A stretch of DNA of 64,000 nucleotides from Ascidiella aspersa (lineage: Eukaryota): positions 30,690,001 to 30,754,000 of the forward strand of contig OZ004607.1 in NCBI GenBank assembly GCA_963924565.1. The letters are read 5' to 3'. The position numbers and the translations under genes are program-made. Within the stretch, counting starts at the first letter, position 1. Every line of letters begins with the position of its first letter. Under the pieces are notes generated by a model. It was not told where the DNA came from. It was given only the letters and a program-made list of their open reading frames with translations, and did not search any database. Positions 13,014 to 61,884 of this stretch are shown here, piece by piece.

Positions 13014-14580
13014 ACCCGGCGTAATGGTTTGTTTTTTGGATTTGCTTTGCGATTTATAACTTGAAATGGAAAGAGCTGAGCGATTAAAAAAGGAAATTTA
13101 TTTCTTGTGGTTCAAAAGACTTCATTTGTATTCAAATGGCAATGACAGCAATTTGGACTGTGACATCATTAACCATCTGATAACTTCTGGAACTCAACTT
13201 GTTATTTTTGGTAAAAACGACTCCATTAGGACTTGGTTAATTGGAAATGACTTCAAATTGACTTATTTGTTTTCAAAATTGACTTATTTACACTCTGGAT
13301 TTCATTAAATAGGCTAATTAAGTTTTATGTTAAAATTAGTTAAGTTTTGTGATAAATTATCTTTGTCAATAACTCATGTTCATTTTGTTGATACATCGTT
13401 TTTTTTACTTACTGTTGAATTATTTGCTGTAAGTGGTATTAGATTAGTTGTCTGTTCTATAAGGTAAATAGTTATATTAGCTTTTACCAGAAGCGAATCC
13501 AGCATTTTTGTGGTTTATTTAGTTCGAAATGCCAAAAAGTTTAGTTCTTTGAAGGCCCGTTAATTCTTTAAAAGGGATAAAAATGTCGTTTGTTGGCCAA
13601 GACATGCTAAAAATAAATTTACAGTTAAAATATGAAAAAAATAGTTTTTTTGGGGGACGTGGCCTTGCAGTCCCCGAATAAATCTGCCCTTGCCACAGAA
13701 ACCTAGAAGTTTTAGAATATTCGATAATCGAAACAACCTTTACGACAAAAACCATATCAAGCTTCGATTTGTTTATTATAAAAAGGCGATAAATGGCTGT
13801 CAAAAAATGCGAGTTTGCATAAGTAAAGCGAATCCTTCACGGATCACAACAAAAACTGCTCCTAAGAAATTTCAAAACGAAAAAAAAATACACAACGAAA
13901 GCATGCAAAGTATAGGCAGTTGCAGCACGAAAAACTTTCCGCTAAACCGAAAACATCTATAGCTACTAACGGAATAAACAACTGGTCATAAACTTGTACT
14001 TTATGATTTAACAATATAAACAAGCCTAAAATGCTGCCGGCTTCGTAATGGTTTTATCAAGTTAAGCAGCGTCCATTTCATATTGCTTCCCTCACCAATG
14101 ATGGGTGTGTGTAACGCTTTTGAAATAAAATATTAAATCCCCCGAAAGCATTTTGCGCTGTTTTTTTACTAAAAATGGATCCTAGCTGTTTTGAACCCGG
14201 ATAAAATCGGCCTCGAAATCGTCCGTCGCGCCGTCGCCACCGTGGTTGTCGACCGCTTCTCTAACCGATAGCGGCAGATCGACGGGGCCTCTTGACCGTC
14301 GGGTCCTAAACTGTATTTTCTGGGCCCCGACAGCGCTCGCAGTCGACTCAAAGTTCTCCAAAGCGACGCTCGGCTCATCCGCTTCGACGCGCCAGTCATC
14401 CACTTTGCTGTCGCGAGGGACGCCGGGAAAAAAGGCGACTCGCGTTTCGACAGTTTTGTCGTCCAGCACCTTGACCGCGAAGCCGGCCAGGACGCTATTA
14501 GGGTAGAAAAGGGGTGACCTGCGGACAACGGGCGTTTTTTTAACAAAATTTAAATATCTACACTATTTTCTGTCCACAAG

Positions 14581-14763
14581 GCGCTGGTCTAGAATCCTAC
14601 CACAACTATTCAATCAACGCACAAGATTTGGGACTTGGGTTAGGGTGCGAGTTAGCGTTTAGGTGTGGGCGGGTCAAGTATTATTATATTGATTATTTAA
14701 TAAAAGTACTTGACCCTCCCTAACCCAAATAATGTGCGTTGTGGTAGGATTCTAGACCAGCGC
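14581..14763. mobile_element. Fold-back element with two inverted copies of a telomere-like core
   Basis: Perfect 26-bp inverted repeat GCGCTGGTCTAGAATCCTACCACAAC / GTTGTGGTAGGATTCTAGACCAGCGC. Internal GGGTTAGGG..GGGTCAAGTA and TACTTGACCC..CTAACCC. Confidence 0.85.
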
Positions 14764-14877
14764 TTTAACTTCTATAACATCTACTACTTGGCGCTGTTCG
14801 ATTAGGGAAAGGGGCGACCTGCGGACAACGGGGTATATGTTAACAACATTTTGGGTCTTAGTCGATAACCCTACCTC

Positions 14878-15077
14878 AGCGTTGAAACAAGTAGTGGACA
14901 ACGCACTATACCTGGGTTGGGTTGGGGTGTAGGTTAGTGTTTGGTTGAGGGTGGGTCAAGTATTATTCGCCTATATTTATTACTAAATAATATAGCTTAA
15001 CTTACACAAACGAGTCAAACGCTAACCCGCGCCTCCACCCAAATTATGTTTGTTGTGGTGGGATTCTAAACCAGCGT
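14878..15077. mobile_element. Degenerate tandem second copy of the fold-back element
   Basis: caacgcac..gggtcaagta and caaacgctaaccc..gttgtggtgggattctaaaccagcg. The preceding flank AGGGGYGACCTGCGGACAACGGG is also repeated (~14510 and ~14810). Confidence 0.75.
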
Positions 15078-18000
15078 CGAACTTTAAACTTTTTGGAAAA
15101 AAATTACCGCAATCAGACACAATTATAAGGATCCCGATGTAGGATCTACTCAACAAAACAGGTGAAATTAGGACCCATACATGAAGTGTATCAGTCATGT
15201 TGTTGGGCCATAATAAGATTTAGCGGTATGAACCAGTCTGGCACTAATATCCTAATATTAGACATGCACTAATACTGACCAGATATTAAATATCGTAATA
15301 CAACTAATATATTGAATAGTACAAGTTCTCATTGATTTACAAACTGTAGGTTATCTTGAAAGTCTGACAGGTGCTGTCGTATTGTGTTACTCGTTGTTTC
15401 GTCGCTATTTTCTGTTTCAGCGATTTTAAAATTAAAATAGATACGAAAATCGAAATGAAAAAAATAAAATAAGTTTAACATTAGTTAACATTGTAGGCTA
15501 CCGTGTGAAGCATTGTGTGCGATTTTTGGTCATGCGCATTTCTAAAGTAATAACTTATTTTCGACTCTATTGCGTTTAGATAACACAATACCATATACTT
15601 GGTACAGTGTTGACTGTTGCAGGTCATTTGTGGGAAGCCCGTTCAACAATGCCTTGTTACAAAGCGCTTTAGGTCACAACCTCCCACACAGTGACCTAGC
15701 AACAGCGTAAGCCTTTGATGCCAATTGTAAGGAGCTGAACCTATGACTAAGTGACTGTTAACTAAATATGACGTGCAAAATATCTTGGATGGAGCCTAGA
15801 CCTAATAACAATGAAACTGAAGAGGTTCGGCCTCCGGTATTAATAATTACTCCGAAATGTTTATTTAATATAGATGTGATGTAATCATTAAATCGTTCTA
15901 TAGGTTGGTTTGCACTTATGTCTTCAATCAAACTAGATTTACAGAACTCCAAATATTTTTTTTTGGATAAGCTACACCTAGGCGACAATGTAAAAAGAAA
16001 AAGCCACTAACTCTGCGCCAAACCAGGCCTACGCAAATCGAAGAAAATAGGCGTTAGCCACCAATAAGATGATGACAAACTTCGTGCGATTACTGGGTTA
16101 TGAGTTGAAGCGGAGGTCGCGTGACTTACACATCATGCACGTCAGAGCTATAGTCCCACAATGTTCGAAATGTCATATAGTTTTGCTCTACCGGTACATT
16201 GGTAAATTTATATTGCGGTGATATGTGTGCCAGAAAACTATTTTGCTTTATTGGTTGTAAACGTCACACAACTGACCTCTGGTTGACGCGGCTTGATGTT
16301 AGCACCAGCTTATCGGGAGCGTTGTATCTGCAACAAGAAATACTTTAATGATGAAGCACGTTCTTGTATTTTTACTATGTCCAACACAAAAGATTGTTAA
16401 ACCGCGACAATGAAGGAAATATTTTAAAATGAATTTGCTAAACTGGTTGCTCAACGTATCCAAAAGTCGGTGTAGAAATTTGACTTGGTTAGAAATCTTT
16501 TTATCTTCTTTTTTGAGGCAATAGAAGAAAGTCAAAATGTTTTAAGGATTATGCTCTAAATAAGGGCCAAACTTACGACACGATTTTCGTTTAGAAATAG
16601 CTCGGTCAGTAATTTTTAATAACGACCGAGCATAGGCTACCAAACAGAAATCCCATTTGCGGCTATCGGCGACTGTAAACAAAAACATTATTCATATATT
16701 TTATGAATGAATAGCCGTTAGCGTTACGTAATCGGAGACGGTTGCTATCGTGTTTAGTTTTAATCGTGTTTAATGTTATGTAACTACCGACTACGAAAGA
16801 TAATAGCCTATCTTGACAAATAACAGACCTTGCAAATACGCCTTGCGTTATTGAAATCATGCAATTGGTGTAAACCGATTCCTTCACGTTTCCTTGCAAG
16901 TCATTGTCCCTCCAACGTAGTTGCACAGGCGCGAAGTAGCTGTTTAACAAATTAATTTAAATTAGCTGAAAGCTGGTTAACAAGTGGAACGATTCCTAGT
17001 GTTTTATAGGCCTAGCAGAGGTTCTAAACCTTGGTAGTAAATAAACCCCTGAGCATAACTTATCTAAAAAGACCTTTCAACGATAGAACAAGCTGGATTA
17101 ACTTAAATTAACTTATTTATTTAATTGAAAGGTGTTTTTAACGCTATATAAAATAAAACAGAGCAACCTATGCAGTGTACTTGAACTTTTGTAAAGGTAG
17201 AACGAAGTTGTTTGGGGGGTAGTGCATCCACTAGGAGCGTCATATATTTTGTGAAAGCTAAATAGATTAGGACCAATCTGCAAATGTTTAAATTTCCGAT
17301 AAATATATCCACAATAAGTAAGTCTACACGAACCTATATTTTCGATTAATTTTATATTACGTTGTCCGAAAGATGAACTTTATTTTTCGAACGTATTTTC
17401 GGAAACAACTTTTTAAAAATGAGTAAAGCACATTTGCGGTACTTACTTGTAACTGCTTTTCTTCCAATATTTGCCGGTCGAAGATAACCTTTGGCTTAAA
17501 CAAATAAAGTTTCGCGACCTCAACATTTTCAGCTTCAAAAAAATATGTAAAGGTAAAATTGCCTAAAGTAGCCTGCAGATACAACTCGAGAGTAAAATCT
17601 AATCGTTCTTATTTTGCAAATATTCTGACTGACTGGCCGCCTTTTATAGTTACTGGACTGGTGTAAAGCTGTGAGTCACTATTCGTGCTTGGTTGCGACA
17701 CGACTGGTTAATAAATTGATGGGTGGGTATGGGCTAAGTTTGCTGTTGCTATTTCGGCGCCGGTTTGATTAATTGTAAACCGTTATGCCGGACCAATGCT
17801 AGAGTTGAAGCTTAGCCATGCTTTATTGTAACTGTAGCAATCTTAATCCAATTATAGTTTATTCGACCGGCAAACGCGGAAACTGAAGTTATCAAAAATA
17901 ATTTTCAAATTTCGGCTTGACGTTGCAATACTAATGCGGAACTTGCAATCGTAAGTAGGAGGAACCTATAGGGAAAGTAAGGAATCCAATCAACCCGTTT

Positions 18001-18261
18001 GACGCAATTCCGTTGTTCAATCACAATGCAAGAAAATCTCGCAAAGTGAATCCACGCCCACGCGGTCGCAAGGGTTTGATAAACGTGCGCTGACTTCGTG
18101 TTGTCGAAAATAAGTCACTCAAATACTGCAAGCCGTCCGATGACACGTAATGCTGCTGACGTCAGAAAACTAGCAACGGAGGTAACGTAACGCTGTCGTT
18201 TACGTTTCGATTTGCAACGAATAACTCATGCGTTTGCCAAGCAGGCACGTGAATGTTAAAC

Positions 18262-18550
18262 CAGTGTTCTAAAGTTATTTGATATCGCGGCCCACGTTTA
18301 CGACACATTGTGCGTGGCGGCTTATTGAAATGAAAATTTAGTTATTTATTTATCTTAAGGCTCATGATACGGTGTGGCGGCTAACCGAACAACACACAGA
18401 ACAACTGCAATTCAGTTGTAAGGCCAAACCAGCAATCTCATTTCAAATTTATTAGATTAAAGTGTCAGGAAAGGTTATAGCTGCTGTTTGCCCAAACCTA
18501 AATTAAATAGTGCACAGCTCGCCCAAAAGCCCAGCAGTTGAAAATCGCTG
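18262..18550. mobile_element. Degenerate hAT-like MITE
   Basis: Ends CAGTGTTCTAAA and GTTGAAAATCGCTG. The flanks TGTTAAAC / GGCCAAAC match only partly. Confidence 0.5.
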
Positions 18551-19001
18551 GGCCAAACCAAGCAGCTCCAAGCGCTGCGAAACAACAGTTTCATTAGCTT
18601 ACGAAATGAACTACATAAACACGCCAAATCCGGGCAAAAAATATACGCATGTCGTTCATTTTACTATAAACAGGAAAGCACGGAATGTCAAACAATTAGT
18701 GTTGCGAAACAACCAGGTGAAATTCTCCTTTGCGTTTTCCGTGAGCTTCCTTCATTTCGCGGCGCAGCGCATCCCACGACCGAGTAACGAGAATTGAACC
18801 GGGCGCGGAGGTCACGTGACGCCGTCGACGTCAGCCCGACAAGCGATGACGTCACTTGTTCCTCTCCGCTTTGAAGCGCGACACTCTCTTGGGCGCGGCG
18901 GGATGCGGCTTGATGTTGTTGTCAGGGGCGGGAGGGTCTGTGTGCTCGCGAACGGTGGTCGAAAACGCTTCCGTCTGTACATAAGCGGAACAATGGTGTG
19001 T

Positions 19002-19745
19002 TAACGAGGCCTTGTCACTTTTTTATATACGCGGTGTTAGGGTTTACGGGAACTTAGAACGCCGCGGAAACGTGTGTGTCAGTGTGTATGCATGATGTAG
19101 GTGTGTGTGCTTCTGTGTATAGTGCGTATGTATGGCGTGTGGGTCTGCCTGTAAATCTGTACGTCTGTCTGTGGGCGTGTCTGTGCGTGATTCTCATTAG
19201 ACGTGGGCCTCTTAACAAGGCCTTGTAACTTTTTACATACGCAGTGTTAGGGTTTACGGGAACTTAGACCGCCGCGGAAACGTGTGTGTCAGTGTGTGTG
19301 TGTGCGTCTGTGTCTTTGCGTATGTAAGCCGTGTGCCTGTACGTACATCGGTGCGTCTGCTTATGGGTGTGTCTGTGCGTGATTCTCATCAGACGTGGGC
19401 CTCTGTTTGAATCTATGTCAGTTTACATGGGGTTATCTGTGCGTGATCCCAGCCGTTTTTGCGCGTATAGACCTGAGCCTCTGCTTAAATCTATGCGGTG
19501 TGTGGGTTTGTAGAAGTTAGTTTGTTTAATTGAGTTTGTACTAGCGTATTTACGTGCGTAAGTTTTCTTGTGCTTGATTATTTGCGTACGTCTACGTTGC
19601 TCTTCAGACGTGGGCCTTTGCTTGTACTTGCGCGTTTGTAAAAGTGTGTTTAGTACGTGCGTACTGCGTATGTTCGTCCATGTGTCTGCAGGCTTTACGT
19701 GTGTATGCACGATGCACGTGCGTATGTCGGTACGTACCACAGTGC
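19002..19745. repeat. Degenerate GT-rich tandem repeat (~210-bp unit)
   Basis: GTTAGGGTTTACGGGAACTTAGA.CGCCGCGGAAACGTGTGTGTCAGTG occurs at ~19036 and ~19246. AGACGTGGGCCT recurs at ~19199, ~19391 and ~19606. Confidence 0.85.
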
Positions 19746-20003
19746 GCGCGGGTACATTTCACAAACAACAAAATTTAAAATATCGTCTTGCAACGTAATT
19801 GTGCAATATTTTGCGATAAACTACAATCTTTAAGGGGTGCCTTGAAATAGAATTGCTGCGTGTAACCGACAAAATAAACTTCTGACCTTTTCGTGTTGTT
19901 GTTTTCCGATATCACCCGGGGTAAATTCGGTGGGGGGCGTCTGTAACCAAATAGGTATAATGGCAAGGCTTACAGCAAAGAGACATATAAAGAGTATATT
20001 ATT

Positions 20004-20011
<8 letters not shown>

Positions 20012-20037
<26 letters not shown>
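20012..20037. repeat. (AT)n microsatellite
   Basis: Direct observation. Confidence 0.9.
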
Positions 20038-20042
<5 letters not shown>

Positions 20043-20494
20043 GGCAAAAAAAATAAAAACATTAGAAAAGTTCAACGCGAGAATATGGTAATAGAAATCG
20101 TCCGATTCTAATGGGTTATCATTAGCGATCCAATACTAATTTTAGTGCGCATTTCAGACATGCTTTCGATCTAACTTAGGATTTTAACTGTAAATTATTT
20201 TTAGAAAACAATATAAGAACAATGAAATGTATCTAAGTTTCATTGCAAAGTTATGGAACTTCAGTTTCATAAAATTGCCTATTTGACCAGGGTTGTGGCT
20301 TTATTTGGTATCAGATCTAAAACTCTTACGAAGAACGCCCTATTATGGCCAGGTATGTGTTGCTTTTAATAACAGCTAGTAAAGTTTTATTTAAAAAGGT
20401 AATGCTTTACAGCGTGTTGACATATAAATTTTCGTCCATTCTAAAACTAATATAAACGATAAATTTCTATACAAAGTCAAGCAGAGAAATCAAA

Positions 20495-23474
20495 TTATAC
20501 TTCTGGTGAAGCTTCAGAGTGTTTGAATCGAATTGAAATTGTTGAATCAGTGGTCTGGGCTTCTGATTTCAAATCAAATCGAACTTGCTTGCGGACAGTT
20601 GTTTCACTAATAAACAAACATCAATTGCATTTAGAAAATGACTAAGCAACGACAAAAAAGGACTTTAAGAGAAAATTCAACTTAACCAAATATAGGCTTA
20701 TAGAAAACCAAAAAAATCGTAACTTGTTGTAGGTTTGACTATCAAATTAAATTTTAGAAATAGACAAGCACCTTTTGACTGATGATGTTTTCTCTTTTTG
20801 TTGCTCACCATCTAGAAATTTGATGTCATTCAGTCTCTTCATTAGCTCTTGCTCCCTTTCAATGGTTGAGTTTTCTACCACCGTCTAAGAATAAATCAAA
20901 TATCAATTCATAGGTTTTGCTATGACTAACTAATAAGATTACAAAACATGGTAGACTGAATGTTTAAATGACAAATGCAATTAAACACAAGATTTTATAC
21001 AGCATCAAAATTTTCGGGCCACAGACAGGCACAAAGACTATTTGCAGTCTTCAGGGGCTTAACTTAAAGCTAACGAATATAAACTACTTAGAGATGGTTT
21101 TATATCTCTAGCTGACATATGACAGGTCCTGTCTTCAATCAGCTAATTGCCAAAGCAATAAAATGGTCAAAAGGCAATGTTATATATAACGAATTCAAGA
21201 TTTTTTTGTTTAACTTTCTTACCTCTGAATGCCTTTCAGGGACTTGTGTTTTGGTTGGCTTAACTTTAGGCCTAGTAGAAGCATCCTTCACCCGACTAAT
21301 TCTCTTTCTTCGGCTGGGGTGCAGGTAGTCATTTGGTATGGGCTACATTAAAATTGCAAAATAAAATGAAAAAACATGACAAACAAATGTGACCAATTTT
21401 ATAATTTTTTTTTTCAATTTTCCACTTAACTGGGCTGTCACAGCTAGAAAATATCAAAGCTTAGGAATTGCATATTTTTAAAATAAATATAGTGAAAATT
21501 TAATACACAACAGTGACTTAAGGTGAGAATCTCAGTGAAAACATTTTTACTGTAGCATTTAACATGCAATATTCTTGATTTTGCCTAATTTGACATCACT
21601 ATGCAGTTGTGCACGTGACTGTTGTCCACTGAAGCGTGACCACGTGCTGAACTGTGTGTTTTCAGCGTTTCGCAATGGATTCTATTTAATATGTCTTACT
21701 GATTGGCGGCCTGAAGCACCGTTTTGTCATATCATGTGTTTCTGAGATTTGTGAATATACTCGACAGGCAATTATCTACCAAGTGGAAAGACTTTGTCTA
21801 GAGTTGAAGTTAAGGACAGGTATTTTAGCGGTCTGTCCCTTTGGAGTCAAATACAAGGACCTGTAAGCGACTTAGGTTGCCGTCAGCTCTCGTCTTAGGA
21901 GCCAGTGCCTTCTCACCGTAAATACACAACTCTACATTCGCTAACTTACATACTTTTATAAAGCAGATATTTTTTTTAAATAACACATTTTAATTTGTGT
22001 ATTTTTTTGTGCAAACATAAGAAAATTGTGAAGAAATAACGACTACTCATTCTAGGTTTTTTTACCCACATTATTTTTTCTCAGTAAGTGTTTAAGTAAA
22101 ATATACAACACAAACACAAAAAAGTAGTTCCTTACTTCCTTAATGTCCACTGTGTCCTCCCCTTCAACTTTTTGACTCGACAAAACTTCTTTTGAAAATT
22201 CCGTTTTCTTATCAAAGTTTTTCAAGGTTTTGTCTAAATCAGCTAAACTTTTGTCAACAGCTTCCATACGGTGAGCAATAATCTTTTGACCCTTGGAATA
22301 TGGTTATTGTCAACTTTTAAACACAAGTAATTTTTGGATTAATAATTTTAGTTATTACTGGCATTTTAATATATAAAAAAATACAGAAAATTTGGATTAA
22401 TCGAAAAACCTACTTGTTTGCATGTCATTTCTGAAAACCATGAATCCCCAAGATGAACAAGGAGCTCATTTGTGTGAACCAACTTTCCAGGAATGAATGC
22501 CAGAGGACTGAACGGCACCTAACAATATATATAATATTTTCACAATTTTTCTGCTAAAACAAAATTAAAATATATATATACCTAGTTTTAAAACAGCAAT
22601 ACAAACCGTAAATAAAATATGATACTGGGGTTTGAGAACAATTACCGCTACTCTAATAGAGCTTTTATTTTTTAGATGCAGCTTCTTTATTTATTTATAA
22701 ACGAAAATGTTACCATGACATCATATGACATCTTATCAGGAAGTGTCTCCAATCTCTTGTCAAGCTGGGAGTAATCTTCTTTGATTCTTTTCCTGTTGCA
22801 AATAAATATGATTATATAATATATTTACTATTTATTAATTTTATAAATTTATTTAAGGCTCTTGATATTTTTTCAAGTGAACCTACATGCATTTTCCTAT
22901 ATGTCTGTGGTGCACTAATGCATAAATAGTGCACCCATTATGGATATGAAAATTACATTTCAGTTTCGCTTAAGTATCTCAGTATTCAAAGCATGCAGTT
23001 TGTAAACTTCATGTACATATTATAGGAAATTCAAAGCGGCTTTTTAATCTAAATAAGGACCAAAATTGTTATGGCGTTAATCACAAAGCAGATTGCCCAC
23101 TAGCCTATATTCATTGTTAATTTTCAAAAATTGCAACAAACGAAAGAGTGCAAGATTTTCACTGGGTAACACTAATTACGGAATGATGAATGGTCGGAAC
23201 GCTCACAGTATTATTACTAAATATAATAACACTTGACCCACCTTCACCCAAAGCTAACCCCCACCTTAACCCAAATATTGTGCGTTGGTTTAATAATTGT
23301 TTTAACGGGGTAACACTTAAATTAGTGAGCATTCCGACCATTTATCAATCCGTAAATTAGTATTACCCATTTTCACTTGGCTTCCTACCAATGATTAATG
23401 TGTTGATGTACTTCTTTTATTGCTTGGCTGTGCGCTTGCTTAAGCCTCTCAGTTCCTGAAGCCGATTGATGCAT
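20495..23474 (-). CDS. URI1: Unconventional prefoldin RPB5 interactor; exons 23474-23389, 22792-22714, 22518-22414, 22291-22136, 21342-21223, 20884-20772, 20606-20495 (3' end uncertain)
   Basis: The spliced translation gives the prefoldin-alpha domain WKRIKEDYSQLDKRLETLPDKMSYDVMVPFSPLAFIPGKLVHTNELLVHLGDSWFSEMTCKQGQKIIAHR, diagnostic of URI1. All introns are GT-AG with consistent phases. Confidence 0.92.
23164..23368. mobile_element. Inverted-repeat element with a 9-bp TSD in URI1 intron 1
   Basis: ~43-bp arms GGGTAACACTAATTACGG..GCTCAC / GTGAGC..CCGTAAATTAGTATTACCC. ATTTTCACT is duplicated at 23155-23163 and 23369-23377. It contains the ACTTGACC..TAACCCAAAT core. Confidence 0.85.
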
Positions 23475-23639
23475 CTTTATGTTCTTCCAATCAAATTAAT
23501 TTCTACTGCTACACAGAGTCAACGCAGTTCTAGAAGGCCCACTTGTTCCCGAGTTCGTGTTTTAATCAACACTTGTTATTTTGGTCAACAGCTTTTCATT
23601 AAAACTAAAAAAAAAAGCGTGAATAGAAAAAAGTACCAT

Positions 23640-23649
23640 GGGAAATCCC
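23640..23649. promoter_or_regulatory. Consensus NF-kB site GGGAAATCCC upstream of URI1
   Basis: Exact match to GGGRNWYYCC; function is not shown. Confidence 0.3.
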
Positions 23650-24185
23650 CTAATATGTTGGATATTTTTTATTTAAAAGTTGTTTAGCCTTTGGTTATGG
23701 TTTATCGAGGCAAGAGTTTTTTATGCTGTCGACGTATTTTTTCAGACGATGTTTGGCTTTAGTTAAAATTAGGCGTTTTTCCGAAAATGGGTACGCGAAA
23801 AGTCATTCAGACAGCATAAAATGATTAAATAACAACATGTAACAAATAAACACCATGCAATTCGTTGTTTTTCTCATTGCATATCAGCTACCTATGAGTT
23901 TTAATGCACAAGTGATGACGAGTAATGAACAAACACGGGTTGTATATTAGGTCAGTCGACACGGTGTTCGACGGGGTTTACGTGATATTCGCGTCAATAT
24001 TGTGTCAACTGCGCCCTAATATAAGACCCAGAACAGCCATTTCAAAAACTTCGTTTTAAGTTTGAGTTAGTTTTTCTCGCGGAAGGTCTGCTTGACAGTT
24101 CTGCGTGAAATTCGGAGTGAATTAGAAAGCTTGTACATAAAGATTTAGTAATAAAGTACAGAATTCGTGCGAAATTTGTGAAGAG

Positions 24186-24470
24186 ATGCGTCAAGACTGC
24201 GATTCGCTTTACAGGCAGTTCCATTGCCTAGCGCTTTCGGCTTCAATTCACACCCGACACGCTGCAATCACGATACGGGCAAGACAACTGGAAGAAGACA
24301 TGGCCAGTCTAGAGAACCGGATAGATTCGGCCGGGGACCGAATTGCAAGGATACGCTTGGAAGTGGAAAGTGTGACTGCGGCGATCGAACAACTCGAAAG
24401 GGATGTTATTCGTCAACGTGAGCTGTGGCGCCGTAGAGATCAGCAAAGATCGGAGATTGAAGATGTGTAA
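24186..24470 (+). CDS. Hypothetical single-exon 94-aa coiled-coil protein
   Basis: ATG-to-stop ORF with E/R/I/L heptad pattern (RQLEEDMASLENRIDSAGDRIARIRLEVESVTAAIEQLERDV). AATAAA follows at ~24804 and 24841. Confidence 0.5.
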   Translation: MRQDCDSLYRQFHCLALSASIHTRHAAITIRARQLEEDMASLENRIDSAGDRIARIRLEVESVTAAIEQLERDVIRQRELWRRRDQQRSEIEDV

Positions 24471-49600: not shown

Positions 49601-52600
49601 CGCTTTAAAAACTTGCCACAAAAGAGTAATGTATCGCTAAAAACTTCTACACGGGAGAATTAAAAGGGCACACAGTTGATAAGTAATGACTCATATATCG
49701 TATCCGTGTAAATCCAACCGCAGCAAAAGATGATTCAACAATTTCCGATCGCCTATCAGTAAAAAATAAATAAGGATCACTAATTTTCGGTGGGGTTGAA
49801 GTAGAAAGGTTTAGGCACAGTTCAAATTACGCCCAACTTATGTTAGTTTGTGCTGTATTTTTAAGAAGCCATCTTCTAAGTTTGGGTCATGTTTAAAATC
49901 ACACCGCGGTTGGTTTTGTACAAGTTTCAAATTCCTGAAATTCTGTGCCGCGTCGCCCGCAGACGACGGACATAATAACCTACGCTTTATTATGAGGACT
50001 TATATTAGTATGTTGTGATATTTTAGGAGAGTCTTCCTAAAAGTCGATACAAGGTTTAAAATCACACCGCTATAGCTTTTATGCGACAAGTTTTGAATTC
50101 TCAAAATTCTTAGGCGGCGTAGCCTGCAGACAACCCATAAGAGCATCGGATCCTGCCCGGGCACGTCCAAGCCAGGGCCAGGGTTGCGTTTATCCCATTT
50201 TGAGCATCGCCATTGCCGCTGTGAAAAGCATTTATCGTCGCTCGCAGTTCGTCTTGTTCATTGAGCAGACTTTGACAAACAATCGGGGATAGGATGCGAA
50301 TTTTTGCTGGGAGCACGCAAGGTAACTTTCATAAAAGAGCGACTGAATCTTGACAACAAAGGTACACTCAGCAAGATTTGGATGTAAGGTTTTATCGTCC
50401 GATAGGACGGGAGATTGACATGTTGATACCCTGTTATGACAGGTTTAAGGCCATTTAAACATCGATAATCCCCGTTAAAATAATTACGCAATTTTTTGAG
50501 AAAACTAGCTCGATTATGTTCACTCTTATTGGTCGATAATAATCAGAAAACGAACGTATTCGGCATTTTCGTGGTTAATTTCTTGGTTTACTCATTATGC
50601 GAGCAACCGAAAATCCTTTATCGTGTTTAAAGCTTGTCTACCGTTTACAAAAATGAACAAAACAATAACTCCACAGGCAGCACTTTACTGGAAAGCGTTT
50701 GAGAGGGTTGCAATTGCAGTAAACGATACAGCCCACAGGCTCAGCATTAAAGCCGACCTCCGCCAAATTCGCCATCCACACAAAAAAACACGCGCAGCCC
50801 GTAATCTAGTAGCGACGGGACCGCCTTGAATTACAACAATAGCATTCCTGCGATCGGCACAAGATAGCTGTAGTTGAAGAGAGTGGGTTGCCCGAAAGTT
50901 GCAATGAAGGCCCCGGGGCTGCGAGCTTAAATCGTCGGCCTTTCTGGCCTGCCTTGATGCATCAGCTGGCGCGCTCTATGTTTTCATGCCAAACATATCA
51001 GGCCGTCATCAAATATCGTTTCTCGCAATTACGTGCTTCGGTGTCGGCCAAGCGAAAGACAACCGGTCGTCGCGCTGACGAACGGATAGAACGCGGAAAC
51101 GAAATTTGTACGAAATGGTTGGGGATATCTATTTAACTACTTATTGTCTTTTTATAGCGTATAACAACTTTTATAAGCAGAATTTTGGTCTGTAAAAACG
51201 GCGGTTAATATCGCAGATTTTATGCTTAGACAACTGCTCGTTTTAAGGCAGCATGTTGAATTGTTTGACGTTTTATAATTTACATTGTAAGACTTTTTGT
51301 CAGTTTAACATCTGGAAGATTTGCATTCATGTGTTAGATAAATATGAAAACAAGTCGCACATTAAAATGTGTTAATAGTGTCACTTGTTTTCATTTTAAG
51401 AATCATACAAATACAACCCAACCCAGTCCGATGAATATAGTATACATGGCGTTTCGCGTGAAATAATCAATTCGGCAGGTACAAAGACGTGTGAATCGCA
51501 CGCAAGTTATGCTTAGCGGCTTTGTGCAGAAAAAATAGTAGTCAAGGCCATCAATTTTCGCGTCCGAACGTGAATTGCGAAATTTATCAAAGTGTCAAAA
51601 ATAAGAAAGCCTCTCGGCCTTTCGAGGCTCTCAGTGCGGAGAAATGGCGACTTCACGCCGCGTTCTGCGGTCACAATAAAGTGCGTTTTGGGCCAGTTTG
51701 CCGGCTACTTATAAAGCGACGGCCGGAACCTTTTTAAACCCTTTTTTGTTTTTTAACGTTGACCACTTTAACACCGAAAATACAATAGGATTATTTCTTT
51801 AGTTCATATGGCTGCTTTAAAGTCGGAAGCTAGTTCGTTTTTCAACACATTCGTCCTATCAAAAATTCGCCAGCCTTAAAGTGAAGACAAATTAGCCTCA
51901 TTCCATTCCAATTTAAGTGTGGCGTGGTTTACCATGCTGGGCCAAAATTACGGAGCCGGCTTCTTCGTAACTGGCTACAACTCGGACCTGCAGTGGCCGT
52001 GATTCGCGCGGCAAGCACGACGGGCAGTATTTCCGCGAAACAAATGGAGTTGCGTGTCGCAACACTTGACAACACGCCGCCGATTGGTGAGAAGAGCCTT
52101 CGCTTATAGAACGTTTACATTATGGAAACGAGACATTTACAAACAAGACATTTGAGATTCGAAGATCGGTTTGAAATCGTGGTAACCTATTCCGGGCATT
52201 ATAAACATCACAACAAAAGGCGAACGCAAACGCCGTACGTTGATAACAAAAATAAATTTATCAAAATAAGCAAAGTTGGTCGGATGTTTAGTAAGAGCGC
52301 TGGTTTTAGAAAAAGTGTAATTTGAATTTATTTGCTGAAGTGAATTTGTGAACAGTTTATAATATACCAAAGCCTATATTTAACGCAGTACCTGTCCAAA
52401 AAAACTCCGTTTCCGACCGGGGGCAAAATCTTAGCAAAATTTTTTCAAGTGACTGACCTGAGGAAGTTTTGCAGGCAGGTGTCGCAGAATCGGTGTCGAC
52501 AAGCGGTAATTTGCACAGGGTCGCGCATTGGGAGGTGGCACAGCGGGCACTGGTGCCGTTTGCGGACTTTGTCCATGATCTTGGTCTTGTATCCCGGCAT
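25689..52600 (-). CDS. TRAF4: TNF receptor-associated factor 4; exons 52600-52458, 35671-35620, 31183-31079, 30609-30454, 29950-29783, 29347-29192, 26661-26420, 26082-25689; 471 aa
   Basis: RING domain [48 protein letters not shown]|[17 protein letters not shown]|IYPDP, then TRAF zinc fingers, then a MATH domain ([26 protein letters not shown]). All junctions are GT-AG and in phase; total 1416 nt. Confidence 0.96.
32779..32860. mobile_element. 5' end of a hAT-like MITE (related end at 17016)
   Basis: CAGTGGTTCTAAACCTTTGG..GAACCCCT here versus CAGAGGTTCTAAACCTTGG..AAACCCCT at 17016. No partner TIR found. Confidence 0.5.
34085..34281. repeat. GACTT-rich repeat remnant (similar tract at ~13190-13280)
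   Basis: Multiple (T)GACTT motifs in both tracts. Confidence 0.5.
46585..46845 (-). pseudogene. RPS11: 5'-truncated processed pseudogene of 40S ribosomal protein S11 (uS17) in TRAF4 intron 1
   Basis: DCLHY, a frameshift, then [53 protein letters not shown], which matches the RPS11 C-terminus. It is intronless and followed by AATAAA and an A-rich tail remnant. Confidence 0.92.
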
Positions 52601-55599
52601 GCTGTCTTGTTAACGTCTGAACAAACGCAGCAACTGGGCAGAGGAACGATGCTGCTTTAAAGCGGTGCTAAAACGCCAAGTTTGTTCTATTTTAAACAAT
52701 CTAAAGTCTGTAAAGAAAAGCAACAAAATCGTTACTGTTTATTTTAGTTGCACGCAAATCACATTGCCCTCGTAGAAATGATGGCTGAAATCAACGAGTA
52801 ACTCTATGTATTGCCGTGAGGCAAATGTACAGCGATTAATCGTCACGCAGTTATTCGATGTGTGCTTTACAAGGAAAACCGCGCCTTACATCAACTTTGG
52901 ACCATGACAATTTTCATAGTTATTCGAACAGTATTCGCCTATTCAAACTTAACAAAACTTTCCGTTCTGTTGTTGTGCGGAATGTAAACCTGCATTCTTC
53001 ACAATAAATGATTAACCTCCTTCACAGATGCAACTCATGGTTTAACCGGGCGCTAATTTCCCATCTGATGCAATGCTATCGAATGGATGTCTTCACGGGT
53101 GCTTCTACTACCTGAATGTTATTAGTTTAGTGATCATGGCTACTGATTAAGGCCTTCTTTTCAAACAAGCTTATGTGTCTTTCACCATTGGCTGACTGGT
53201 TTAAAAAGAACTTAATTTTCAGCTCTGTGCCGTGCAAAACTCACAAAACATGGCTAGCAAAAAAAGAGCCGCCAGGTCTACAAGTTGCCATGTAAACTTG
53301 CCTAATAGCCCCTGCTTTCGCCGCCGAGCGAGTCTCTAATGTGTTGGCATTGCGCTTAAGCTCGCCTCGCCCGTTCTACACACCCGTGTGCGGTTCTAAT
53401 TCGGGGATAATCCAAAAAATAATTTCCTTCGCGCGTCGCCACGGCCCTGGCAGCGATTTTACTCTTACCGATTCGGCGCGACGTCGACGGGCTAATGAAG
53501 GTTTTCCGTCTCTCGTTGCGAGCAAGACTCCGAACAAAACTGTACAAGAAAAAAGCGCCGCTTCGAGAAAGGCGGGGGCGAGAAAGCTGTTCACGCCGTT
53601 GCTACTACGACGTCTTCCTTTGTTACGTCGATCGGTCGTGACTTACGTCGTTACGCACGACATTAGCTAAAGCAAGCGACTGTCAATTTTTTTTGAAGAT
53701 AAAAACATGCAACGTAATGTGGAACTTTCGAGAAGAGTTTTTCTTAACGTAAAAATTTGACCTGCACATATAGGTAGCGCCTCTAACAATGCGTGTAAAT
53801 CGCGCCTGTATAATCCCTTCAATTTTTGTATATGACCAGCAGCCGTGTTTATCTATTTAGGATGCGAATGATAAAACTCGCAAATCAGTATCGAGGTTAC
53901 AAATTTCTAGTTCAACAACATATGAAGTTTTTCGTTTCTCTCTACTACAATTTTGGGAAGGCGCGCCCTTTCAATTGTATGACACAAAATATACCACTTG
54001 TAAAAAACATATACCACTTGTAAGGTACTTGTAAAATATTTTCTTTGTCGTTTTGAGCAAAGAACTACAACAACTGTTAGCTTTCAGGCACCTTTTTAAA
54101 TTATTCTGACCACCAATCTTAGGTAAAACCGCAAAAGGCCTGCAGTTAACTCCTCACAGTTGTCTCTGGGCAGTTTTAAGTGGCGTACACACGCTGACTA
54201 GAGCACCAACCACTTTTAAGGTCGATTGATATACGCCCGCCTAAATCTGTAAAACTAAATTAAAACCAGGCCGTAGTAAACAATCAGCAATTTATTATTA
54301 CTTGAAAAAATCGATTTTAAAAGCTTGTATATTCGCGGGATAGGAGTACTCGATGGGCCCCGGCGCACCCCACTCGAACACAATATACGCCATATGAGTA
54401 CCGACGATTACCGCCACTTAAAACACATTGTAGTGCTGTGAAGGATTTGACAGGCTTTTTGCAAGGAATACACTAAACGCCTGCAGAATTGCAGTATGTG
54501 TCATGCACTAAGTATAGCAATGATTTGCTGCGGCAAATATTAATCCTTGTGCGCCTTTGATGTCTGACAGTCCGGTAGCCTAAGTTTCTGATCTAAATTT
54601 GACCTTCATAAACCTTGGAAAAGTCAGGCGACTCATCAGCACAAACTTTACTTTTTTGGTGAAGGTCATTATCTTAGATGAGGATGTATCAGACAAGGTT
54701 TCTCATTTTATTTTAAATTATTACACAACTCATTTTTATAAGAATGGATTTTTCTGCCGATTCACGTTTGTTTTAAATTTGAAAAAAAAACACATCAGTG
54801 TTACTATTTGTATTACGTAAAAAACAAGCGTCTACAGGGAATAGTAGAGCATAATTCATGCTTAGGTATAGAGCCTGTCAGCGGTTTCACCTTTTAAACC
54901 TTAAATCAGAAGTACGAAAGCCAGTTCACAGCAGCAATAGTTATTTTACACGACATGTTTTGTTTGGACAAGGGTACGACTGGCAGGGCTTCAGCTAATT
55001 AAACAAGGCCCCTCTGTTTACATTGATCGAGCCCGTTCCTCATAAGCCTTATTGCAGAGACTGTAATCGCAATTTCACGAAGTCCCCAAGGATACTGTCG
55101 TGGATGTGCCGACTGTCCCGTTTAATTGGACTCTGATAGAAAAAGACAGAAGGTATGGCGCAACCTATGCACACCTTTGTGATTTGGTGTCTGCCTATTT
55201 TCTGCACGAAATCGATTTGAATCAGCTACAATCCATCTGTCTGATATCAAAGAATCGGCCCATATGCTACCTTAAACTTGAATTCATAACTGGTATGCAA
55301 AAAATATAGGCTGTATCTATCAAACGATAACACTATTAAACTGCTGTCAAAACGAATAACCTTCATTCTTGTTACTGACAATACCGTTACAATAGGCTAC
55401 TAATCTAAGTTTCGGTGAAAAAACACACAAACGCTTCGCGAATCCAAAACTGGGCTGTTGAAAAGTGTCAGTTTCAATCTTTATCTGTGTTATCCTTTTA
55501 GCAAACAGGCGCTTTGTCAGCTCTGCCAGCAGAGATCAGTTTCAGCAGGCGCAGAGTTAAGAGTTAACACAGCACCCGACCGAAGCACAAGCGAGCTCG

Positions 55600-56000
55600 C
55601 TCAACTAGTTAACAACTATGGGTCGTCGGTGTGGATTTCTTTACAATACAGCTTTCGCGCACAAAGTAAACAGCTGAAAGGGGCCGCGAAGCCCACGTAG
55701 GATCTTTTATGCGAAAGGGCGATGTCCATTTTACGTGGGCGTGTGCTGTACAGCGGAGGGGCTGCTTCGTCGCGCTCTATTGTCATTTGCCCACTTAAGT
55801 TGGGCGGCGAAGCGAAACCCGCGAACGAGCTTCGAGTTTTTGGAATCAGCTGTTTCGCGCCGCGCAGAAGTGCCCCCAACTGAAGTGCGCGTTGGCGAAG
55901 GTGCGATTTTGCGCTGCTTTTGTGCTGTCGGGGTCTTGTGGGCGGAAGTGGCCGCTGTTTAGCTGCTGGAGTTCAGCTTCGTAAGCAGCGAGCAACCAGA
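55600..56000 (-). promoter_or_regulatory. GC/CpG-rich island, candidate TRAF4 promoter or non-coding first exon
   Basis: CpG-rich block between the GDPD1 3' end and the TRAF4 ATG exon, with TATA-like CATAAAAG on the minus strand at ~55704-55711. Confidence 0.35.
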
Positions 56001-57842
56001 GATAAAGAAGTGCGCCTTTGTCGAATTGAAGTGAGATAAGACGCTGCTGTCGCTTAACAACGCAATACTAAAACACCATTGGTCCATACATAGGTTTATG
56101 CAAACGATCATTGCCCAACAAGAGACATATCCTCAACAATAATTATTTATGACAAATACAGCATTTTTATTCAGCGCGATTAAACAAATAGCCTAACACT
56201 GCATTTATGCCATTAAAATTATATAATTTTATTGCAAGATTTTATTGTAATGCTGTAATTGAATGAGACGTCGTTTGCTTAAGTTTTTTTTATTTAGATC
56301 GCAAGCCCGCCATATCTCCTCAACCACAACCCACAGTGGCATATGGACATATTAGGTTTAACTGATAGACATACGAATACACTGGCCTTGGACCCAAGAG
56401 TATTGGGAGGCACACAGAAACTAATTTGCCGCACAAAACAGTCACACATAGCATACTAATAATAAGAAGGACAGACACTAATGAGCAGACTACTTGGTTT
56501 AAGTAACTTAACGGTCTCTGATTAATGCTATTTAGTCGAAAATATCGCCAATTTCAAAGTCCAAAGATGTAGCCTAACAGTTTTGGCAAATTTAACAAAA
56601 AATACTTGTTTCATACAAATTCAGTTTATTGTAAGGCAATATGTTTTTCCTTTGTTAAAACTTCTTAGTGTCTTAGTGCGCTTTATTTTTGCACTAATTG
56701 ATTTAACTAATGGACATTACTGCTATCATACTCCGCGCCCTGCATAGACTTTGTTTGAAATACTTTGACTCCACCATGCGGTAGAAGTTTTCCTACCAAT
56801 TTTAGTTTTGTATTGAGTTGAAAAATAATCTCTTTATTTAATAATACTAAAAAGGGACAGTAAAACCGCTAAAATTTGGTTATTTATCTGTATTGGTAGT
56901 GCTTTCATGGCTATTTAAATAGTTTGTGGTGTAAGTTAGATGTTTACTAATTTGCAACATTTTTATTAATGCTATTGTTCGCATATTTCAACAGCCCAAA
57001 TAATGCTTTTTGCGAGCAAAAATAATAAATTGACGTTTAAACGCTGGGAAAGGCACTTGCTTATCACAAACTGGAGAGGCTTTATGGTTCCTGTAGTTGA
57101 GGACAACTATTTGTCAAGGATAATTAGGTTATCAAAAAAATCACTCCGAAAATATAAAACCGTGGCAAATCTTAATTTACGTTCTTTGCAACACCAAAAC
57201 AGTTCATCAATGCAGAAACATGTTGACAAAGGCGGAAATTCAGACATGAGCTTGAAAAACATGAAACAGTACAATGATCTGCAGTTTCTTTAACTCTACA
57301 GTAGGTAGTTACCGTCCTAAATAAAGAACTAATTATCTAAAATAACACAGGCCTTACAGCGATAACAAATAAAAATACAAACATAATTAAAATACACAGT
57401 CGTAGTATGTGACGCCTATTGATAATAACCCAATCTAAACAGCGCTCGAGTAAAACACAATATGATAAAAGTGCACCACAAAAGTGAAACAATAATGAAA
57501 GTGTTTACCCCGATTCAAAACAAATCGTAAAACTTAAAATCTCCTAATTTAAAAACTTCAGTAAATAAATGATTTTAAAATAAGCACATATTTTTAAGAA
57601 ACATAAATAACGAAGTGCGTTAAAGTTGTTACTTGAATTTTAAAGATTAAAGGAAAAAAGCGTGTCCTTCGCATTCAAACACACATGCTTTGGATAAATA
57701 CAAAATTATTACAAAACAATCGACAATTTTTTAAATCGTACAACACACAACATGCAGATTGAACTGGCGATGTAGTAAACGAAATTTACAAACGATTTCA
57801 TTTTGCTTAACGCTTACGTATTTCAATCATTTACTAAACAAT

Positions 57843-60647
57843 CTAAGATCTTTTTCCAACCCAGTACTGTGGATTTTCATTTAACCAGTTGGTGAGTTTG
57901 TGAGGGCAATCTGTCATTATACCTTCAGCACCGGTTTTGAATGCAGTCTTGAAGTCTTCTTCTTCGTTTAGCACCCAAAGATAGGTCTAATGAACAAGAG
58001 AATTTTTAATCCTATTTTTTTTCTATGATGTATTGACAGGCAATAGCACTGAAGTAGAAAATATTAACACGGTTAGAACAGGAATGGCGTAATAAAAGCA
58101 AACAAAAAACAAAACAAGTTATGCTTTTTAACATCATGCTATTTACGAAACACGTCTTTGATTGTTTTTTTCTAAAATTGATTTTGATTTCCAAATAAAG
58201 TGTAAGGAAAAAGAAGAAGTGCGATAGGCATTTATACTTCAAGGCAAAATAGTACCGACCTTTATCCCTCTAGCTTTTAGGTGGTTGAACAAAATGCGGC
58301 TGGACAGCAGAAAGCCTGCCGCATTGAGTAGCCTTTTCTGTGTTGGTGACATATTGAAGTTAACCCTAAACGAGCATCATTTTTTAAGTTGTTGATATTT
58401 TACTAACAAATAAACAAAACAGTCGTGTTATAACAACTTTAATATTAAATACCTTTTAAAACAACATGGATGGGGTATTTCCAAGAAGCTCTCCTTAAGT
58501 GGGATGAAAGGCAACAAACCAGTGTAAAACCACAAATAGACTAGACTAACTTTTTTCATCGAAAACAAAAGGGGAACTTCGGGATTCTGAAATGACAAAC
58601 AATTAACATTAATTTTATTGGGCAGCATATTTGCAAATCCTAGAGTAATAATTGGCAATGAAGTACAGCTGTTTCTTGAAAGAAAAGGTTATCAAAATAG
58701 CATCAGACAAAATTTCAATTGTACTTTATCTTCATGAAGGAAATTTTCAAAATGCCGGTAGAATTAACCATGCATGGTATATGTGGTCTGGGGCTGCAGT
58801 TTGGTGACCCCAGTTATATGGTAACCAGAGGTTATAAAGCAGCAATGTGAATAATATTAGTTTGTAAATATCATTGACATAGCTGTTTTATGCAAGTGCT
58901 GTTTAAATTAAATTGAATCAAAATATTAGATGTAATAAGGAAAAGATACGATTGCTGTAATTAAAATACACAGTCAAAAAACTTTACATAACACCCAACC
59001 AAAAAAAAGTAACATAACATAACATCCATTGATACTAAAATGTTAGAAGTATGAAACATACCAGCTTGTAAAGTTCTTCACATGTAGAGGATCTAAAGTT
59101 TCCCCAAACTGTAATTTTTTCTCTGTTGTACTTCTTGATCAGTCTATTTGCCTAAAGGTAATGAGCATGTTAATAATTATATTATGCAACTGTTATTATA
59201 TTTTTACCAATTCAATATAAAAAGTATACGCATTAAAATTTATTTACCATTTTACTTATTTGATAATGGATAGTAATAATAAAGAAAAGCTCTGCCTTCT
59301 CGTGGTATGCATGTACAGTGTACACAGTTTCCATGGTTTCACACATGTGTTAGCATTGACAGCATTACACTATTGTAAATTCTCTAAAGTGTCTTTATAA
59401 AATTATATTAAATTAGGAATCAACAGTTACAACACACTTAAACATAATTGATGAATTTTTGGCACCAGTTGAAAGACAAATATTAAAAAAAAGTCCATCA
59501 GGAAAAAATCACAAAAAACTTACCTCTGCTGGAAGCTCCTTTGAAATCCCTTTGATGTCCAAATTAATTGGAGTGTTGGGAAAAGTCTTGAAGACCTCTT
59601 CCAATGTTGGAATCTGTTCTCGTTTGCCATGGTTATCACAATTGACTGAACCATAAAATGTTACGTTCAAGGAATCTTTCAAGAGGGGTAACTCCTGTTA
59701 TAATATAAAGCATACTGTGAATCCACATGAATTTGGTAGTTTAATAGTTGAGTGTAATATTAATGTATATGCATGATTTTTACAAATCTATTCTGGTTTA
59801 AATAAGGAGTCTTTTAAAAAATAAGAAAAACACAATAAAATACTTTTGTGTAGAAAATAATTTGAGATTAATTATACTGCACAATGTTAATATAAACTTT
59901 TTTGTTTTGACTCTTTTAAACAAATCAACACAACAATTTAGTCTATTTCTGAGTAACAGAGTTTGTATGCAAGCACCACCTGCAAGCATAAGCATAAAAC
60001 TAACCTCAAAGTTGAGGTCAGGTATCTTATCTTCGCAATCAGCACAACGCTTCAAATCCTCATCATGAGATACAACCACAACCTTATCTTTTGTCATTTG
60101 CACGTCCAATTCAAGCATTTGACTCCCAGCATTCACAGCACTGAAAAATAAAGACATGCCAATCAATGTTACAGGTGAAGTGACTACATTTCTATGACAG
60201 GCATAAATGCAAAAATCCAACTGATAACAAAAAAAATAAATATATAGTTCTTTTTAAATATATAACTAACTTTTCATAGGCAGCAATGGTGTTTTCTATC
60301 TTTTCCGCCGCACCTATGGGAGAAATGGAAGAAGGCTCTTGATAACTACAAGTTTAATGTAAATTGTTCACTTAGAAGATACGGTTTTTGGTTATACATA
60401 CAGTGTTATAAATAACAATATGTAGATTATTTTTTGCCAATTTAAAAACAATATATTTTCTATAATTATTCCACATTTTTTTATTTACTGTACCTCCTCT
60501 GTGGCTTATATGTGCACATTGGAACTTGTGCTTCTTCTGCTTGTGCAAAATGGAAGGACAGTTTAACAAGATGATAGAAGTAGTGACATATGCGCCAAAT
60601 GTTCCCAATATAGCATAACCCACAGTGGCACCTACACTTAATGCCAT
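57843..60647 (-). CDS. GDPD1: Lysophospholipase D / glycerophosphodiester phosphodiesterase, GDPD1/GDPD3-like; exons 60647-60494, 60313-60271, 60140-60005, 59694-59524, 59151-59062, 58586-58453, 58365-58260, 57986-57843; 325 aa
   Basis: N-terminal TM segment, ISHRGGAAEKIENT, MLELDVQMTKDKVVVVSHD, IPTLEEVF, NLDIK, FYTGLLPFIPLKE, YLWVLNEEEDF, GIMTDCP. Splice phases are consistent. Confidence 0.93.
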
Positions 60648-60710
60648 GATAAATTCCTAGATATGCAAAACAGGTTATCAATTTTCCAAGACGGTGATTT
60701 AACATTAAAG

Positions 60711-61014
60711 GGCGCTGGTCTAAAATCCTACCAAAACGAACTTTACTTGGGTTAGCGTTTGGGTAGGTTAAGCAATATTAATAAAAGATTGACCCACTAA
60801 CCGTTCTGGTCTAGAATCCTATCACATTTATTGTAACACTAATGAAACGAGTTGTCAAAGTTCAAATCGCAAGAAAGGCATATAATTATGTAACAATAAA
60901 TTTAATAATAATACTTGACCAACCAAAACCCAAACGCTAACTCTCACCCTAACCCAAATATTTTAAGCAATACAAACCCCGAAAGAAAATGTGGTAGAAT
61001 TCTAGAGCAGCGCC
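60711..61014. mobile_element. Fold-back element of the 14581 family directly upstream of GDPD1
   Basis: GGCGCTGGTCTAAAATCCTACCA / TGGTAGAATTCTAGAGCAGCGCC, with core TACTTGACC..CAAACGCTAAC..CCCTAACCCAAATA. Confidence 0.85.
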
Positions 61015-61581
61015 AAAAAAACCTCGGGTGTGCAGCTGCCACTTAATAGACTGGAGTGCAACCGAACGTAGTTCTGCGATATAAACGATGAATATATAAG
61101 AGACCTAATTGATTTAGCCATATGACTATTCAGACTAAACTATCATCAGACTTTCTACCTTTCGCTACAGCTACTAGTTTATTTTATGCCAATCTCTGGT
61201 ATTATACATGCTAAAAAATAAAATAAAATGCACTTTTTGATTTGACAAACCTCCGGTTGATTTTTACCTAGTCATGATGACTAAAATATATCACATCGCT
61301 TTACCCAAATAAATTATAATCTCTTTGCTTTTACCTGGTGAGTACTTTCAACTTTGAACCTAGCTAACCCTATAATTAAAGGGTTTAATTTATTTAAAAA
61401 AAAGAAATATATTTAAATACATATAAAGTTAGAGAATAGAACCCCTCAGTGAAAATATTTTCAGATTTATTAAAAACTGCATTTCGCCTAGGGGTATTTA
61501 CCGCAAAATTCACATGCCTTTTTAAAAACAAAACAACAAGGTTTGGCAAATACTTTTAAACCAAAATTAAGTCACAGGCAA

Positions 61582-61777
61582 AATAAGGTATAACGAATTC
61601 TTAATGCAGCTACTCGCAACGTTAAAAAATATTTTATGTTTATTTAGGCAACTGTTGAGTGTTGACCTAGAAGTAGAAATATGAAAATACTTGACCTACC
61701 CTAACCCAAACGCTAACCCGTAAGCCGTAACCTTACCCAAATAAATAGCTGCACTAAGCATTACCTTATACCTTATT
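61582..61777. mobile_element. Same core flanked by a third type of inverted repeat, upstream of PUS3
   Basis: AATAAGGTATAACGAATTCTTAATGCAGCTA / TAGCTGCACTAAGCATTACCTTATACCTTATT surround TACTTGACCTACCCTAACCCAAACGCTAACCC. Confidence 0.75.
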
Positions 61778-61884
61778 CTGACTTGATCTACCTTATCCTG
61801 CCTACCATTGGGTCAAAGTATTCTCCATAAGGTTTAGTAGTGTTAAATATTAAGTTTTATTTAGATACCAGTATTAAGTCCAAC

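Follow-up and report, generated by a model that had tools for sequence, protein, structure and literature searches.

A short conserved core lies between inverted-repeat arms that differ from locus to locus in a 64,000-bp stretch of the Ascidiella aspersa genome (contig OZ004607.1, positions 30,690,001 to 30,754,000; hereafter the window). [quoted passage not shown] By alignment, the 47-bp core is a worn copy of the host telomere repeat. The explanation we favour, with a little better than even confidence, is that telomerase-type patching mended broken palindromic elements and that the patched interior was then relayed to new ends. That the units are transposons is directly observed; telomerase action and the order of the relay we infer from sequence.

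Transposon ends around a shared core

All 8 core copies that an earlier note on this DNA had placed at 5 loci of the window were recovered, seven of them with a profile built from the window. An 18-mer of the core has 5 matches there against 0.01 expected, and none of 100 shuffles reached 5. The genome was searched as 308.6 Mb in 75 contigs, the window lying on C1: a strict 29-mer taken from the core matches exactly at 1,431 places, and its reversed control at 0. Sixty 10-kb stretches at fixed intervals (600 kb) served as a survey, which holds 26 profile matches at 14 loci and 0 after shuffling; loosely extrapolated, the genome holds about 7,000 core loci. An arm adjoins the core at 14 of 14 survey loci (arm 1 at 11, the new arm 4 at 2 and the new arm 5 at 1), with no free-standing core among them, and 23 of the 29 arm-1, arm-4 or arm-5 terminus matches in the survey lie at most 300 bp from a core. 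Genome-wide the core occurs in five arm families, one of them P-like; the family samples were fetched by similarity and lean young. Metagenome contigs gave 0 exact matches to the core, and no Rfam family matched at 4 loci.

Cores are about 90% alike between arm families while the arms show no homology. Nine of ten pairwise tests of the outer arms gave p 0.12–0.90, and arm 2 against arm 4 gave p 0.04 uncorrected. The claim of three unrelated arm types thus stood, as did that of a conserved middle between differing ends; the alternative that the arms are homologous found no alignment beyond that of shuffles. Inverted repeats extend to the termini at both sides of the units, and the TSDs are specific to each family: among 82 arm-1 copies, 45 have an exact 8-bp TSD, 9 an 8-bp TSD with one mismatch and 21 none; among 36 arm-2 copies, 11 have exact 9-bp and 9 exact 8-bp TSDs; an exact 8-bp TSD flanks 12 of 15 arm-5 copies; and among 37 arm-4 copies, 20 have an exact 7-bp TSD and 14 none, many of the latter being an internal duplicate end. 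Of the 20 arm-3 copies with both ends, 9 have an 8/9-bp TSD with at most one mismatch, where chance gives 25 of 2000; 10 of 30 arm-3 loci lack an end. An automatic finder of terminal inverted repeats (TIRs) placed a spurious 8-bp "TSD" within arm 4 (40 rows) and erred at several single ends; these calls were excluded. The arms bound units with their own TSDs, and the earlier suggestion that the core hitch-hikes on other transposons is borne out. The mean pairwise identity of the families ranges from 0.84 (arm 3) through 0.94–0.96 (arms 5 and 2) and 0.92–0.98 (arm-1 clusters) to 0.99 (arm 4); the core has thus lasted through successive bursts.

Arms 1, 2, 3 and 5 have GG ends and 8/9-bp TSDs, and arm 4 has CA..TG ends with a 7-bp TSD. 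We take CA..TG to be the end motif of the P superfamily; it was also observed here on P-type coding elements (PF21787, 51 matches overall), which have 8- or 7-bp TSDs. No P-type transposase with arm-4 ends was present in 23 stretches of 10 kb around PF21787 matches, no coding partner for arms 2, 3 or 5 at 28 Merlin-exon matches or in wider stretches, and no Merlin exon in 30 long arm-2 loci among the matches listed.

Arm 1 has its coding partner. The transposase domain PF12762 has 10 matches in the genome, four of which end in the arm-1 terminus. The two best matches, on the small contigs C11 and C52 (L046, L047), were dropped, as these contigs appear bacterial, being gene-dense and holding IS1595 remnants. 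The complete one among the four, a coding element of 12,979 bp, has arm-1 ends (the same 24-bp end), an 8-bp TSD, long inverted arrays of a 382-bp unit and a last exon matching PF12762 (E 1.7e-7), with the D, D and E motifs of the catalytic triad in three exons. Against the 24–462 bp set for Merlin TIRs, the arm-1 MITE has a TIR of about 25 bp and the inverted ends of the coding element exceed 1 kb. The core is absent from this element (best score 3.4 bits); a core native to the coding Merlin was therefore rejected, and the core is cargo. At L343, half of an arm-5 element next to a Merlin remnant resembled a native TIR with core, and this candidate was rejected too: its two cores come from different broken MITEs. 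The 382-bp repeat (L041:4936-6026 and the joined L050/L043 element) contains the TIR motif internally, along with a perfect match to a site that we presume to be CTCF-like, a combination that recurs about nine times per Merlin element. An upstream transposase exon (L041:3468-3551) has a CxxC pair by eye and no Pfam match; described Merlins lack the IS1595 zinc finger, according to the sections available of PMC8101967.

The same evidence bears on the idea, put forward in the earlier note, of a rolling-circle, Helentron/HINE-like module that builds or swaps its own palindromic arms. This origin is refuted for arm 1, which is shared with a DDE element, and is scarcely credible for the units as a whole: TSDs of 7–9 bp occur in all five families, the ends are GG or CA rather than TT, and inverted repeats stand at the very termini. 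Helitron-type Rep genes do exist in the genome (19 matches), some subfamilies have a short hairpin after the core, and DINE-1 likewise has a conserved core (PMC4067079, as far as its text was available). Yet the Rep/helicase element with the same core that the note had envisaged was not found, neither core nor arm occurring in six 10-kb stretches around Helitron Rep matches, and a solo core occurs at 0 of 14 survey loci. A separate arm-4 MITE lies 1.3 kb from Rep at one of 19 short Rep loci.

Telomere tracts and a probable relay of the core

Aligned with the telomere repeat, the core is identical at 36 of 43 bases, a match reached by 0 of 2000 shuffles; the host repeat itself forms a long TTAGGG array about 4 kb from the end of C1. 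Exact TTAGGG averages less than one per core, and the G-quadruplex pattern occurs in 24–83% of copies by family, so that a strict G-quadruplex function was rejected. Variant telomere-repeat arrays also lie far from contig ends (L386, on C1 near 0.79 Mb, and L396), and the unit at L386 contains the GGGTCA step that also ends the core.

Fresh telomere tracts occur in long arm-2 parents, which lack the core as a native part (82 exact matches to their pattern). Of 25 such parents, 17 have fresh TTAGGG tracts, 6 a whole nested arm-1 MITE and 2 neither; the fresh tracts are not related to the core. The tract occupies the TAGG of a subrepeat, with 70 plain against 27 tract-bearing contexts (the tract-free paralogous subrepeats served as empty sites, and contexts rather than independent events were counted), and its G strand is directed from the arm toward the centre. 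With a tract-start pattern for interstitial (TTAGGG)3, which misses tracts after G, we obtained 30 matches genome-wide, 3 at contig ends and 27 at 25 interstitial loci. Inverted-repeat elements enclose 21 of these 25 loci: arm-2 parents account for 9 (7 seen, 2 assigned by position and junction), a sixth family for 6, a seventh, foldback-type family for 4, and arm-1 cores that slipped to pure repeat for 2 (L394, L397). Family 6, presumably Ginger-like, has TGT..ACA ends and a 4-bp TSD in 4 of 5 two-ended copies, and shows two junction types, one at its own TAGG (3 copies) and one with the element deleted up to the tract; its short derivatives (L403-L405) are deleted exactly to the tract edge. 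Tracts lie mid-element at L387, L390, L398 and L402-L405 in family 6, and at L388, L393, L401 and L406 in family 7. In all, three families hold fresh TTAGGG tracts.

Could these tracts have been copied rather than synthesised? Template switching during gap repair might have copied telomeres or interstitial arrays without telomerase, slippage then lengthening the copies and a neutral relay spreading them. Ectopic gap-repair capture has been proposed for the interiors of P-MITEs (PMC1562414, in the portions available), slippage is seen in the cores that are 6 bp short (17 of 292 measured) and in the pure-repeat cores at L394 and L397, and L386 is a variant-repeat array. Nevertheless, no subtelomeric filler flanks the TAGG junctions, and telomere arrays are a tiny share of the possible templates, with 0 double telomere repeats in the 600-kb survey. 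We therefore consider this route unlikely.

Traces of how the core may have passed between families are found in the elements themselves. The interior of compact arm-2 MITEs consists of the centre and one half of an arm-1 MITE (86% identity over 99 columns), and that of arm-5 MITEs of both arm-1 halves, including inner arm-1 TIR bases (84% over 149 columns); arms 3 and 4 have some 60 bp in common, at 86–93%. The alternative raised earlier, of independent insertion of the core into known MITEs, thus gives way to travel within captured MITE pieces. Intermediates of the relay survive at L016, L356, L381 and L053, of which L381 is an arm-2 parent holding the core pair without arm-1 ends and L053 is an arm-1/arm-5 chimera under a single TSD. 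Whole arm-1 MITEs are nested in 6 of the 25 long arm-2 parents, with about two origins. MITEs insert into each other and so form nested multimers. Here, arm-1, arm-2 and arm-5 copies lie inside another family member in 10 of 99 cases, against 13 of 3000 random sites, and arm-4 copies in 0 of 23. Nested arm-1 and arm-2 copies are also carried by two P-transposase families. One young P-type family (L311-L319) measures 6.5 kb, with 97–99% identity, an 8-bp TSD and, in some copies, an open frame of 800 codons; it has arm-1 and arm-2 MITEs upstream of the transposase, and its L318 copy lies inside an arm-4 element.

These non-homologous arms around cores about 90% alike also argue against the core being the native subterminal region of an extinct Merlin-type ancestor of the GG-ended families, the outer ends of which would have diverged. 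Arms 1, 2, 3 and 5 do share GG ends and 8/9-bp TSDs, and the oldest carriers (arm 3 and the single-core arm 1) resemble each other upstream of the core. But the living Merlin element is coreless, the long arm-2 parents have no native core, and arm 4 ends in CA..TG with a 7-bp TSD; such an ancestor is very improbable.

Under the explanation that we favour, telomerase-type patching followed by relay, Merlin and P-type transposases would move the units, and long inverted repeats (as hairpins) or excision sites would break. Telomerase would extend the broken ends from an in-register TAGG before they rejoin. Nested insertion or gap-repair capture, followed by deletion and by recombination between cores, would then place an old core between new ends, and two-core palindromes may arise by foldback copying. 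Relay of telomere cargo would likely explain most of the telomere-like sequence inside the chromosomes of this animal.

Several observations weigh against this explanation. Neither a TAGG junction nor an empty site is seen for the old core, whose telomerase origin would for this reason hold by analogy with the fresh tracts; within one family, these tracts may descend from one event. The G strand is reversed in arm 4 and at the second family-6 junction type, and 4 of the 25 interstitial loci, together with an isolated tract on C1 (L389), lie outside any recognised inverted-repeat element. Against the local background of 1–3%, the excess of nesting is only about 4- to 8-fold, from 3 copies of 26 and 2 of 26, and because of this background part of the nesting is regional clustering. 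As no coding partner was found, the superfamilies of arms 2–5 are assigned from their ends and TSDs. Finally, two results are not predicted by passive relay: between subfamilies the core changes at roughly half the rate of its flanks (p 0.02), and elements in the survey with CAG/TAG ends and 8-bp TSDs, which we take to be hAT-type, never carry the core (0 of 17, with one hexamer overall).

Alternatively, the telomere-like cargo may be retained by selection, a host telomere-binding protein or the transposase binding it and thereby raising excision, end pairing or escape from silencing, so that any family gaining the cargo would amplify. This is compatible with a telomerase origin, and we regard it as possible, with low confidence. 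The core length of 47 bp is kept in 15 of 15 subfamily majorities, and the core has 0.55 changes per column against 0.92–1.58 in the flanks at equal private-mutation rates; the core was, though, defined by its own conservation, which makes the rate test partly circular, and the comparison of the flanks was ungapped. Separate gains number at least five, in four unrelated families. Fresh tracts are missing from all six arm-2 parents with a nested core and present in 17 of the 19 others, but the six stem from about two events. The exact deletion of the short family-6 derivatives up to the tract, and the closeness of arm termini to cores in the survey, would also fit. The coding Merlin and many hAT-type families, by contrast, spread coreless, and both the scarcity of exact TTAGGG and the patchy G-quadruplex pattern speak against a selected telomere motif. 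On this view, unrelated transposons (Merlin, P-like, TGT-ended and foldback) might have converged on a host telomere repeat that recruits telomere proteins to boost or shield transposition, the core being an optimised portable enhancer; this, too, we regard as possible, with low confidence. A core that outlives its ends could, equally tentatively, be likened to the conserved central domains of short interspersed nuclear elements.

Core loci in the window

In the window, core copies 1 to 5, 7 and 8 are profile matches, and the elements themselves are given without strand; three of these elements have hairpin folding z values of -11.4, -7.0 and -3.9. At 14.5–15.1 kb the earlier note had described a head-to-tail pair, and two elements are indeed present. 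The first (14580..14763) is an arm-1, Merlin-type palindromic MITE with two opposed cores and no remaining TSD, at the limits of which (14580 and 14763) reads of other copies stop sharply, with random flanks. It holds core copy 1 (14632..14687, minus strand) and the partial, internally deleted copy 2 (14701..14732, plus strand), the profile match of which is 14701-14729. The second, an older arm-1 MITE of a different subfamily with a decayed left end (14855..15077), starts near 14855, which corrects the earlier description, and holds copy 3 (14916..14968, minus) and the partial copy 4 (15016..15046, plus).

A 50-bp segment precedes both elements of the pair, at 14497..14551 and 14801..14851 (both minus strand). 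It resembles a splice acceptor that was duplicated within a minus-strand gene, rather than a part of the elements. The first copy would comprise an intron end and the start of a host exon, outside the element, with an open frame from 14520 downward, a splice-site reading that we base on the letters; the second acceptor-like copy could mark an exon start that is dead or alternative.

The compact arm-2 MITE at 23164..23368 has a 9-bp TSD (23155..23163, plus strand, and 23369-23377), which proved real as the earlier note had claimed. It consists of a 44-bp left arm, about 100 bp of captured sequence (an arm-1 MITE palindrome centre, one core and spacer) and a 62-bp right arm that holds both termini; its core is copy 5 (23223..23279, plus). 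At 60711..61014 lies an arm-1 composite, in which a truncated two-core copy is joined to an old single-core copy, with the partial core copy 6 (60749..60768, minus) and copy 7 (60905..60962, plus). The arm reported at 61582 is a third distinct type, as stated, although the arm given there is internal: the element, an arm-3 MITE of an old family with GG ends, spans 61545..61826, with a 9-bp TSD containing one mismatch and core copy 8 at 61681..61744 (plus). No joint skipping a whole element was seen at the window loci among the 15 joints listed (508 more exist; reads and contigs, three runs), with the 60.7- and 61.5-kb loci outside this coverage.

Three further features of the window were noted. 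An open frame of 1,907 codons without introns (3195-8918) holds about 20 cysteine-rich repeats of 135–141 bp that, by eye, we take to be low-density lipoprotein receptor class A-like. A local tandem family with a 192–215-bp unit lies at 19020-19726, and a further dispersed repeat at 21573-21903 has a read depth about 20 times the background.

Relation to described elements

MITEs, foreign interiors gained by capture, and telomere repeats at mended breaks are all known; their combination is not described in the literature that we found. Palindromic repeats with telomere-like middles are known from fish and insects. No paper on telomere repeats that recur as cargo in unrelated TIR families was found in the literature covered, which left most subscription papers, Dfam and Repbase outside, and such cargo is not described in the available portions of PMC7998251, PMC10013865, PMC2831315, PMC6431247, PMC5953449 and PMC9071541. 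If our explanation is true, the interstitial telomeric sequence of this genome would derive chiefly from inverted-repeat transposons (21 of 25 loci), and these would provide numerous paralogous, dated records of telomerase at work on internal breaks in the germline. With the near-intact Merlin and its MITE, it would also become testable why some MITE interiors replicate more than others, and whether transposons make use of proteins that bind telomeres.

In the sections available to us, Merlin is defined by GG ends and 8/9-bp TSDs, and Merlin elements with their MITEs resemble arm 1 in their 5'-GG ends, 8/9-bp TSDs, DDE_Tnp_IS1595 transposase and internal tandem repeats (PMC8101967). The arm-1 MITE differs from the coding Merlin in an interior that is foreign to the coding element and telomere-like, and the string "telomer" occurs 0 times in that paper. 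Helentrons, HINEs and DINE-1 are alike in combining a conserved core with short repeats in a non-coding mobile element. As far as the accessible text describes them, HINEs carry subterminal repeats and a 3' stem-loop, insert at TT targets and leave the target unmodified (PMC4067079), none of which holds for the units here.

The P-MITEs of Anopheles gambiae also have transposon ends around an interior unrelated to the master, and it has been proposed that they capture foreign interiors by gap repair and that two masters can give rise to composite MITEs (PMC1562414, sections available). Unlike in P-MITEs, one telomere-derived interior recurs here in five families, apparently of two superfamilies, and the TSD of arm 4 is 7 bp, like that of one P-type coding element in this genome, rather than 8 bp. 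In foldback composite transposons two ends can mobilise the sequence between them, a likeness to our units, and shared telomere-type cargo is not described for them in the part of the source available (PMC6431247).

Mammalian interstitial repeats inserted by telomerase are, like the tracts here, short exact host repeats at breaks that decay with age; in the portions available of PMC2246262 they are typically in register with the break, by 1–8 bases, which is taken as a sign of telomerase. Unlike the mammalian inserts, the presumed break sites here lie inside mobile inverted-repeat elements, as do most interstitial tracts of this genome, and because of this position each patch would have been multiplied.

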